DNA from: a virus
Lineage: Duplodnaviria; Heunggongvirae; Uroviricota; Caudoviricetes
Direction: 5' to 3' (one strand)
IMG/VR virus record: IMGVR_UViG_2531839554_000008
DNA length: 14,441 bases
In this document: piece after piece, positions 10,798 to 11,088 of the stretch
Position numbering within the stretch: position 1 is the first letter of the stretch
How the letters are laid out: each line of letters starts with the position of its first letter
The notes under the pieces: model-generated
Seen by the model: the letters and a program-made list of their open reading frames with translations, nothing else
Told to the model about the DNA's origin: nothing
Database searches by the model: none
Program-made: the position numbers and the translations under genes

Positions 10798-10953
10798 TTT
10801 GCGGGTTATTTGGGGGGTGTTTGCGGGTTATTTTGAATGTCTTGCGGGTTACGTTTTGGCTAATATTCAAACATGTCATTTTTTAACGTATTGATATTAA
10901 AGAATAAAAAATACTTAGCACGCGAAGATAACCCGCTAACCCGCATAACCCGC
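10798..10953. repeat. iteron array with inverted arms: 3x TGCGGGTTA (21-22-bp phasing), a 77-bp AT-rich spacer, then 3x TAACCCGC (8-9-bp tandem)
   Basis: TGCGGGTTA at 10800, 10822, 10843; TAACCCGC at 10929, 10937, 10946; AT-rich 10852-10928; followed by GTATATATATAC (10961-10974). Confidence 0.75.
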
Positions 10954-11088
10954 ACTGTTTTGTATATATATACGAAAAATTGCATTCAGGAGGGGGATCG
11001 AAATTCCTGCAATCCATTACTTATGGAACTATCCGCCCCGTCAAATTTTTACACCCGCGAAATTAAAAAAATGCGTTGCGCTGGTGGG

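Follow-up and report, generated by a model that had tools for sequence, protein, structure and literature searches.

Near the right end of this E. coli phage satellite, 354-510 bp inside its boundary, six short iterons face one another across A+T-rich DNA. Rather than directly following rep, whose stop codon (5735) is 5 kb away, they come after the packaging genes. The locus raises the question of which protein such an array would serve, and how it came to stand where it does. Comparison with related islands leads us to consider it likely that the array is an orphan half-origin, namely the distal half (B) of a two-part origin belonging to PICIs whose Rep has a DUF927 body.

The island, its own origin and the array

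The whole stretch of DNA analyzed here, 14,441 bases in length and called the window below, contains a phage satellite of the PICI type, 10.8 kb long, which occupies a site between the E. coli genes yljB and clpS. Island-free genomes match the window from ~11304 onward, and the attachment-site repeat ATGATAGTTAT(T/C)TATCA occurs at 477-493 and 11308-11324. The island encodes an integrase with an arm-binding domain (661-1899), an AlpA-like helix-turn-helix regulator, an Icd-like protein, a DUF4222 protein, an SSB, a ClpP-protease/capsid fusion (7330-9243), a DUF1441 small-terminase-like protein (9413-9985), and a 113-aa protein. Its resident Rep (3981-5735, + strand) is a primase-helicase of 584 aa that domain scans place with D5_N, DUF5906, and Pox_D5. 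A complete origin at 5745-5985, 3' of this D5_N-type gene, has GTCTACC iterons around A+T-rich DNA in the symmetric plan also seen in arrays A and B (below), with a tight pair at each outer edge, direct at 5751 and 5760 and inverted at 5959 and 5968. Both its place and its form agree with published E. coli PICI origins (PMC6092414).

The array itself was already described in a first-pass annotation as three direct and three inverted repeats around a 77-bp A+T-rich core followed by a (TA)n palindrome, and sequence reading together with a repeat finder bears this description and its positions out. The left arm consists of three direct TTGCGGGTTA iterons on the + strand (10799-10808, 10821-10830, and 10842-10851), spaced 22 and 21 bp apart so that all share one helical face. 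The core (10852-10928) is 72.7% A+T, compared with 51.3% across the window. In the right arm (10929-10953, - strand) three inverted iterons are tightly packed, with TAACCCGC at 10929, 10937, and 10946 and a spacing of 8 and 9. Beyond it, the repeat finder located a (TA)5 run, TATATATATA, at 10963-10972 within a short, easily melted palindrome. The exact 8-mer GCGGGTTA is present at the six array places and nowhere else on either strand of the 14,441 bases. By chance, ~0.44 exact copies are expected across the window and 0.005 within 156 bp, so the array is no random cluster. Its iterons are unlike those of the island's own origin, (C)TGTCTACC / GGTAGA, a difference that had also been recognized at first pass.

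Two opposed iteron sets around an A+T-rich region, the arrangement that characterizes PICI and SaPI origins, are thus found a second time in this island. Alignment of homologues (described below) revealed a conserved TTAGCACGCGAAGA block within the core, adjoining the right arm. The core also contains TATCAATACGTTA (10884-10896, - strand), a match to the IHF consensus WATCAANNNNTTR at the level of consensus only; the window has six such matches where 0.75 are expected, and the one in the core is kept in 28 of 33 distinct array-B variants. We presume that the 77-bp core is an unwinding or bending region.

Several other explanations of the repeat found no footing. A sigma-70 promoter scan of 10300-11420 returned no sites. 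A coding or RNA explanation was rejected because neither PHROG nor Rfam gave it support: three ORFs overlapping or adjoining the array had no PHROG match, and the Rfam search yielded one chance miRNA match of 18.6 bits against a threshold of 180. The suggestion of a partition or centromere-like site falls away with the finding, from domain scans and RefSeq annotation, that the island has no par genes. Neither papers nor the PMC6092414 supplements, searched as text for the iteron, gave anything relevant (the published iteron sequences stand in a figure image), and the searchable paper text reports no binding or replication experiment on the array or on GCGGGTTA iterons.

A probable two-part origin in islands with DUF927-type Reps

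BLAST detected homologues of the array in 408 of 5,426 complete E. coli genomes. Apart from the window's own island, every array-bearing island that we fetched encodes a Rep with a DUF927 body. All 48 fetched loci with a DUF927-body Rep have the arrays, a 48:0 tally that is biased because most loci were found by searching for the array itself. Among arrays with a visible rep gene, pairing with a D5_N Rep was seen in the window's island only, and two islands with other Rep types (L007 and L191) have no GCGGGTTA array. A further scan of contigs with a two-copy iteron pattern gave mostly chance matches in unrelated phyla.

In these islands the GCGGGTTA iterons form two arrays. The first, array A, starts 25-35 bp past the rep stop codon, where published PICI and SaPI origins also lie, and consists of two tight direct copies, an A+T-rich stretch, and then four or five spaced inverted copies. 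The window array is a homologue of the second, array B. In L005, L130, L165, and L190, among others, B is fused to A in a composite '++-----++---' origin directly 3' of rep, and the window array aligns at 81-88% with the distal half of this composite in those four loci. In L003, L004, L006, L129, L192, and L193, B is detached and lies 7-8 kb from A, near the right end of the island. In these loci, and in approximately 25 cf-PICI (capsid-forming PICI) loci from IMG/VR, the detached B follows TerL and comes just ahead of a cos-like sequence of the phiP27 type. Many IMG/VR contigs end short of the place where a detached B would be expected, and we make no claim that the B half is universal among DUF927 islands.

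Identity of the window array to L003-L006, L129, and L130 ranges from 81 to 94%, and its '+++---' layout is shared with the 33 distinct array-B variants. All three left-arm iterons are kept in L004 and L006 even though these BLAST homologues are just 82-84% identical overall, and two of the three are kept in L005 (81% identical). Array-B homologues, among them the origin of L220 with its GTGGGTTA iterons, have the (TA)5 run as well. When read on the opposite strand, B shows the layout of A, and alignment of A with the reverse complement of B scores 128, compared with 54.5 +/- 6.8 and a maximum of 78 for shuffled sequences. By this comparison, B is an inverted copy of A.

A less biased sample than the 48:0 tally came from DUF927 Rep loci gathered by protein search, independently of their iterons, with the iteron called as the commonest 8-mer within 450 bp 3' of each rep gene. 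Rep groups (61-98% identity) each have an iteron of their own: GCGGGTTA, GTGGGTTA, GTTGTCCC, GTTGGTTC, CGTGGTTC, or TTATCCCA. The layout call recovered the two-part pattern in four of these six groups, the GTTGTCCC and TTATCCCA groups being the two without it. The B half of L220 shares AAAAAATACTTAGCA.GCGAAGATAACCC and GTTTTGTATATATACG with the window array and is visibly its homologue, and the iterons of L220 have changed from C to T (GCGGGTTA to GTGGGTTA) in the A and B halves alike. Another locus, L238, follows the same two-part plan with an unrelated iteron. Across Rep specificity groups, then, the iterons of B vary together with those of the proximal half (GTGGGTTA, GTTGGTTC, and CGTGGTTC groups, and L220). 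Because both halves change iterons together in this way, B is best understood as a Rep site. We infer that the protein binding A, namely Rep, would also bind B, and we regard this co-variation as the strongest computational evidence available.

The resident Rep of the window is not the protein that matches. Its similarity to DUF927 Reps is limited to the first ~140 aa (window 3981-4400), which are 75% identical to the DUF927 Rep of L005, while its helicase body and C-terminus are unrelated. The DUF927 Reps of L003 and L005 differ strongly over their first ~140 aa yet share the same iterons, so the N-terminal ~140 aa do not track iteron type; in our Rep comparisons, iteron type follows the helicase body and C-terminus. 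The Nissle/CFT073-type island L007 encodes a Rep whose body is 98% identical to that of the resident Rep, shares its GTCTACC iterons, and has no second array. D5_N Rep thus goes with GTCTACC and GCGGGTTA with DUF927 Reps, which agrees with the first-pass view that a protein other than the binder of the island's own origin is implied and that no island gene is paired with the array, the matching DUF927-type Rep being absent from the island. The DUF927 match, the two-part origin, and a cos site ~75 bp downstream were all new relative to that annotation. It is conceivable that the N-terminal domain of the resident Rep, which is common to one DUF927 Rep, touches the array. As a separate observation, the first ~140 aa of Reps from the window, L003, L005, and L007 make up a module that moves between Reps separately from the helicase body.

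Given a matching Rep, we propose that it would bind the three phased iterons and the three contiguous inverted ones, with the A+T-rich core between the arms probably bent by IHF. The core or the neighboring (TA)5 run would then melt and one helicase hexamer would be loaded, with a second hexamer loaded by array A, the inverted copy directly 3' of rep. The window's island has neither a matching Rep nor an array A and would replicate from its GTCTACC origin with its D5_N-type Rep. Its GCGGGTTA array would be silent in cis and act only with a GCGGGTTA-specific Rep in trans. Rep binding, melting, and silence are all predicted here from sequence patterns.

A probable orphan half beside a cos site

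The array and the neighboring cos site sit in a mosaic block (10282-11131) of 850 bp that replaces 346 bp of sibling islands. Part of it, window 10495-11089, matches the right end of a thiM-located DUF927-Rep island at 91% identity. Two siblings at the same attachment site, L190 and L191, have near-identical integrase, capsid fusion, and DUF1441 genes, and in both the array is absent from the right end. In L190 the Rep is of the DUF927 type, the origin is an A+B composite, and the right end is empty; L191, from E. coli strain D5, has TGTTCACC iterons and no GCGGGTTA array. By this pattern, the array and cos site arrived together on an 850-bp recombination patch. In a side observation, L191 has a third Rep type at this attachment site, and the CTGTTCACC repeats of its origin (L191 7180-7410) represent the same octamer as the phage P4 type I iteron, TGTTCACC.

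The genomes of BH100N and MS 200-1, hosts of the island, each have a single place matching the array query. Given this single match, neither has another array-B island, and because there is no other array copy there, a matching Rep is unlikely in these cells. The orphan array is therefore, on sequence grounds, probably silent unless such a Rep reaches it in trans. That all six iterons are perfect despite the absent matching Rep could reflect recent arrival or selection for a function that needs no resident Rep.

The cos region is of the phiP27 type (10998-11069, + strand, by ~70 bp of homology). Phage phiP27 and the window show 100% identity over 37 nt (11033-11069) across the 10-nt cos site annotated in the phage, the equivalent of which is 11030-11039. 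It is of this type although the small-terminase-like protein of the island is DUF1441 (mEp460-like) and not P27-family, and sibling islands have a diverged cos version at the same position. A sequence resembling the start of lambda cosN, GGGCGGCGACAGCCGCCTTTTTT at 9250-9275, was rejected because it is an intrinsic terminator hairpin that follows the capsid-fusion gene; the island is devoid of a lambda-type cosN, of which the CFT073/Nissle-type island has two exact copies.

Several further repeats occur in the region around cos. Exact Chi sites (GCTGGTGG) number 17 in the window, compared with 0.42 expected from shuffles; 13 of the 17 are inside the 10.8-kb island, nine of these on the + strand (examples are 10666-10673 and 11080-11087 on the + strand and 11124-11131 on the - strand). 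On either side of the cos position, within ~90 and 365 bp, there are Chi sites in the correct orientation, which would shield the two ends of a linear island cut at cos against RecBCD. The direct repeat TGGGCTTTTCCACCATTGGTGG, 22 nt long, forms a palindromic hairpin overlapping Chi at 10377-10398 and 11086-11107, bracketing 709 bp that include the array and cos; it could mark a recombination joint or be a protein site present twice. A motif of GCTGGTGGGC plus a variable hairpin recurs to the right of cos in L003, L004, L007, and L191. Several PICIs have repeated copies of (C)TAACCCGTTGAT(A/T)TTTTCGG, a motif of ~20 bp, downstream of a conserved gene of ~93 aa (the 113-aa ORF) at window 10320-10340, L005 20438-20800, and L007 14838-14990; these may represent packaging recognition repeats for TerS or Rpp.

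Six perfect iterons without a resident matching Rep also suit a role in trans, in which the array titrates the Rep of a co-resident DUF927 PICI, or the island is replicated and packaged by such PICIs. Plasmid incompatibility iterons titrate Rep in this manner. DUF927 islands are common in E. coli, and their cos allele is identical to the one linked to the array. Against this, the two hosts checked have no other array-bearing island, and the block may simply be a recent recombination patch; we rate such competition or hitch-hiking as quite unlikely. A related and likewise improbable proposal is that the array and the phiP27-type cos form a portable cis cassette, either for replication and packaging by co-resident DUF927-Rep cf-PICIs or for sabotage by soaking up their Rep. 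If true, this cassette would amount to satellite-on-satellite parasitism or incompatibility.

The proximity of array and cos, in the window and in the ~25 cf-PICI loci, leaves room for a link with packaging. In lambda cosB, the order of sites is R3-I1-R2-R1 with an IHF site between repeats, and the window array resembles it in having repeats close to cos with an IHF consensus match between the arms. The array could on this basis consist of cosB-like repeats bound by the DUF1441 protein or by a P27-family TerS, directing a cut at the adjacent cos, and the first-pass annotation had named the DUF1441 (there Nu1-like) protein as a candidate binder. Siblings with a DUF1441 protein that is 99.5-100% identical do not have the array at their right end. 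Homologous arrays occur with a P27-family TerS (L005), a lambda-type TerS (L130), and DUF1441 (L190), in each case with a DUF927 Rep, whereas repeats of the lambda cosB type would be expected to co-vary with the small terminase beside cosN. The array is also separable from cos in many islands: in L005, L130, L165, and L190 it forms a fused part of the origin 3' of rep, and in L130 the cos-like sequence is 4.2 kb away. In phiP27 the cos site occurs without an array, and the search of phage genomes that had been recommended as a check recovered no phage record in the collection with the array, only the neighboring cos of phiP27. Together with iterons that vary with Rep groups and not with terminase, these observations leave a packaging site with little likelihood.

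It is also very improbable that the island's own Rep uses the array as a working second origin or as an enhancer resembling P4 crr. In favor of such use, the array has an origin-like layout, an N-terminal domain is common to the resident Rep and DUF927 Reps, and P4 offers a precedent in its distant cis replication region that shares iterons with ori. The GTCTACC iterons of the resident Rep are absent from the array, however, and its N-terminal domain is not the part of Rep that iteron type tracks. Furthermore, the Nissle/CFT073-type island with a 98% identical Rep body has no array, and sibling L191 does without one. The earlier suggestion of a second origin or cis replication region was therefore right as to the kind of element; what is present is probably a half-origin only, without the iterons of the resident Rep.

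Arm-type sites for the integrase or an excisionase are extremely unlikely despite an integrase with an arm-binding domain and an array only a few hundred bp from the right end, because the motif is missing at the left end, where copies in both attP arms would be expected, and because the array is conserved in islands at thiM, yqeG, hpt, and roxA-phoQ, whose integrases and attachment sites are unrelated, while the TTGTTCG and GGTGTAGTTAAT repeats at both ends change with integrase type. These TTGTTCG(N) and GGTGTAGTTAAT repeats, at 498-640 and 11170-11236 beside the attachment-site core, are themselves likely to be integrase or excisionase arm-type sites. They differ in L003, an island with another integrase and the same array.

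Relation to known origins and meaning for satellites

At PICI and SaPI origins, an A+T-rich region on the 3' side of pri-rep lies between two sets of iterons (Ubeda 2007; Fillol-Salom 2018, PMC6092414; PMC7581432), and the P4 ori and a cis-acting site are mentioned in PMC6092414. The probable orphan half-origin shares with them the opposed short iterons around an A+T-rich core, and its iteron is identical to that 3' of the DUF927 rep. It departs from them in its distance from rep, its place beside cos, its mismatch with the resident Rep, and its lack of an array A. We conclude that this is a real, functional-looking iteron array of the PICI/SaPI origin type, known in kind and unusual in context, being detached, non-matching, and carried with cos on a mosaic block.

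P4 crr consists of two 120-bp direct repeats bound by the alpha protein. Split-origin relatives of the window array (L003, L004, L006, and L129) resemble this system in having a second cluster of the same iteron kilobases from the origin. In contrast to crr, the window-type element is an inverted copy of the origin-proximal half with an A+T-rich core of its own, and the window holds no matching GCGGGTTA origin with which it could cooperate.

DUF927 Reps are relatives of SaPIbov1 Rep and SCCmec Cch, and the two mirror-image halves would fit the picture of SaPIbov1 Rep-related helicases. SaPI Rep has been compared with SV40 large T antigen and papillomavirus E1 (PMC7581432). The mirror-image site sets of A and B would, as at the origins of those viruses, suit two hexamers loaded in opposite directions; the proteins are unrelated and the analogy is one of layout only.

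Earlier descriptions present the PICI origin as a single iteron field beside rep. Our comparisons suggest that the DUF927-Rep origin has two mirror-image halves, that the distal half is detachable and can move to cos ~7-8 kb away, recalling P4 ori and crr, and that origin halves can be exchanged between satellites independently of the Rep gene. For annotation, recognizing such elements has practical value, as a conspicuous repeat of this kind could otherwise be mistaken for a packaging or partition site. An orphan half-origin, if correctly identified here, is a clear footprint of modular exchange between satellites, and it offers a straightforward way to ask whether satellites can replicate one another, or compete, by way of the iterons they share.
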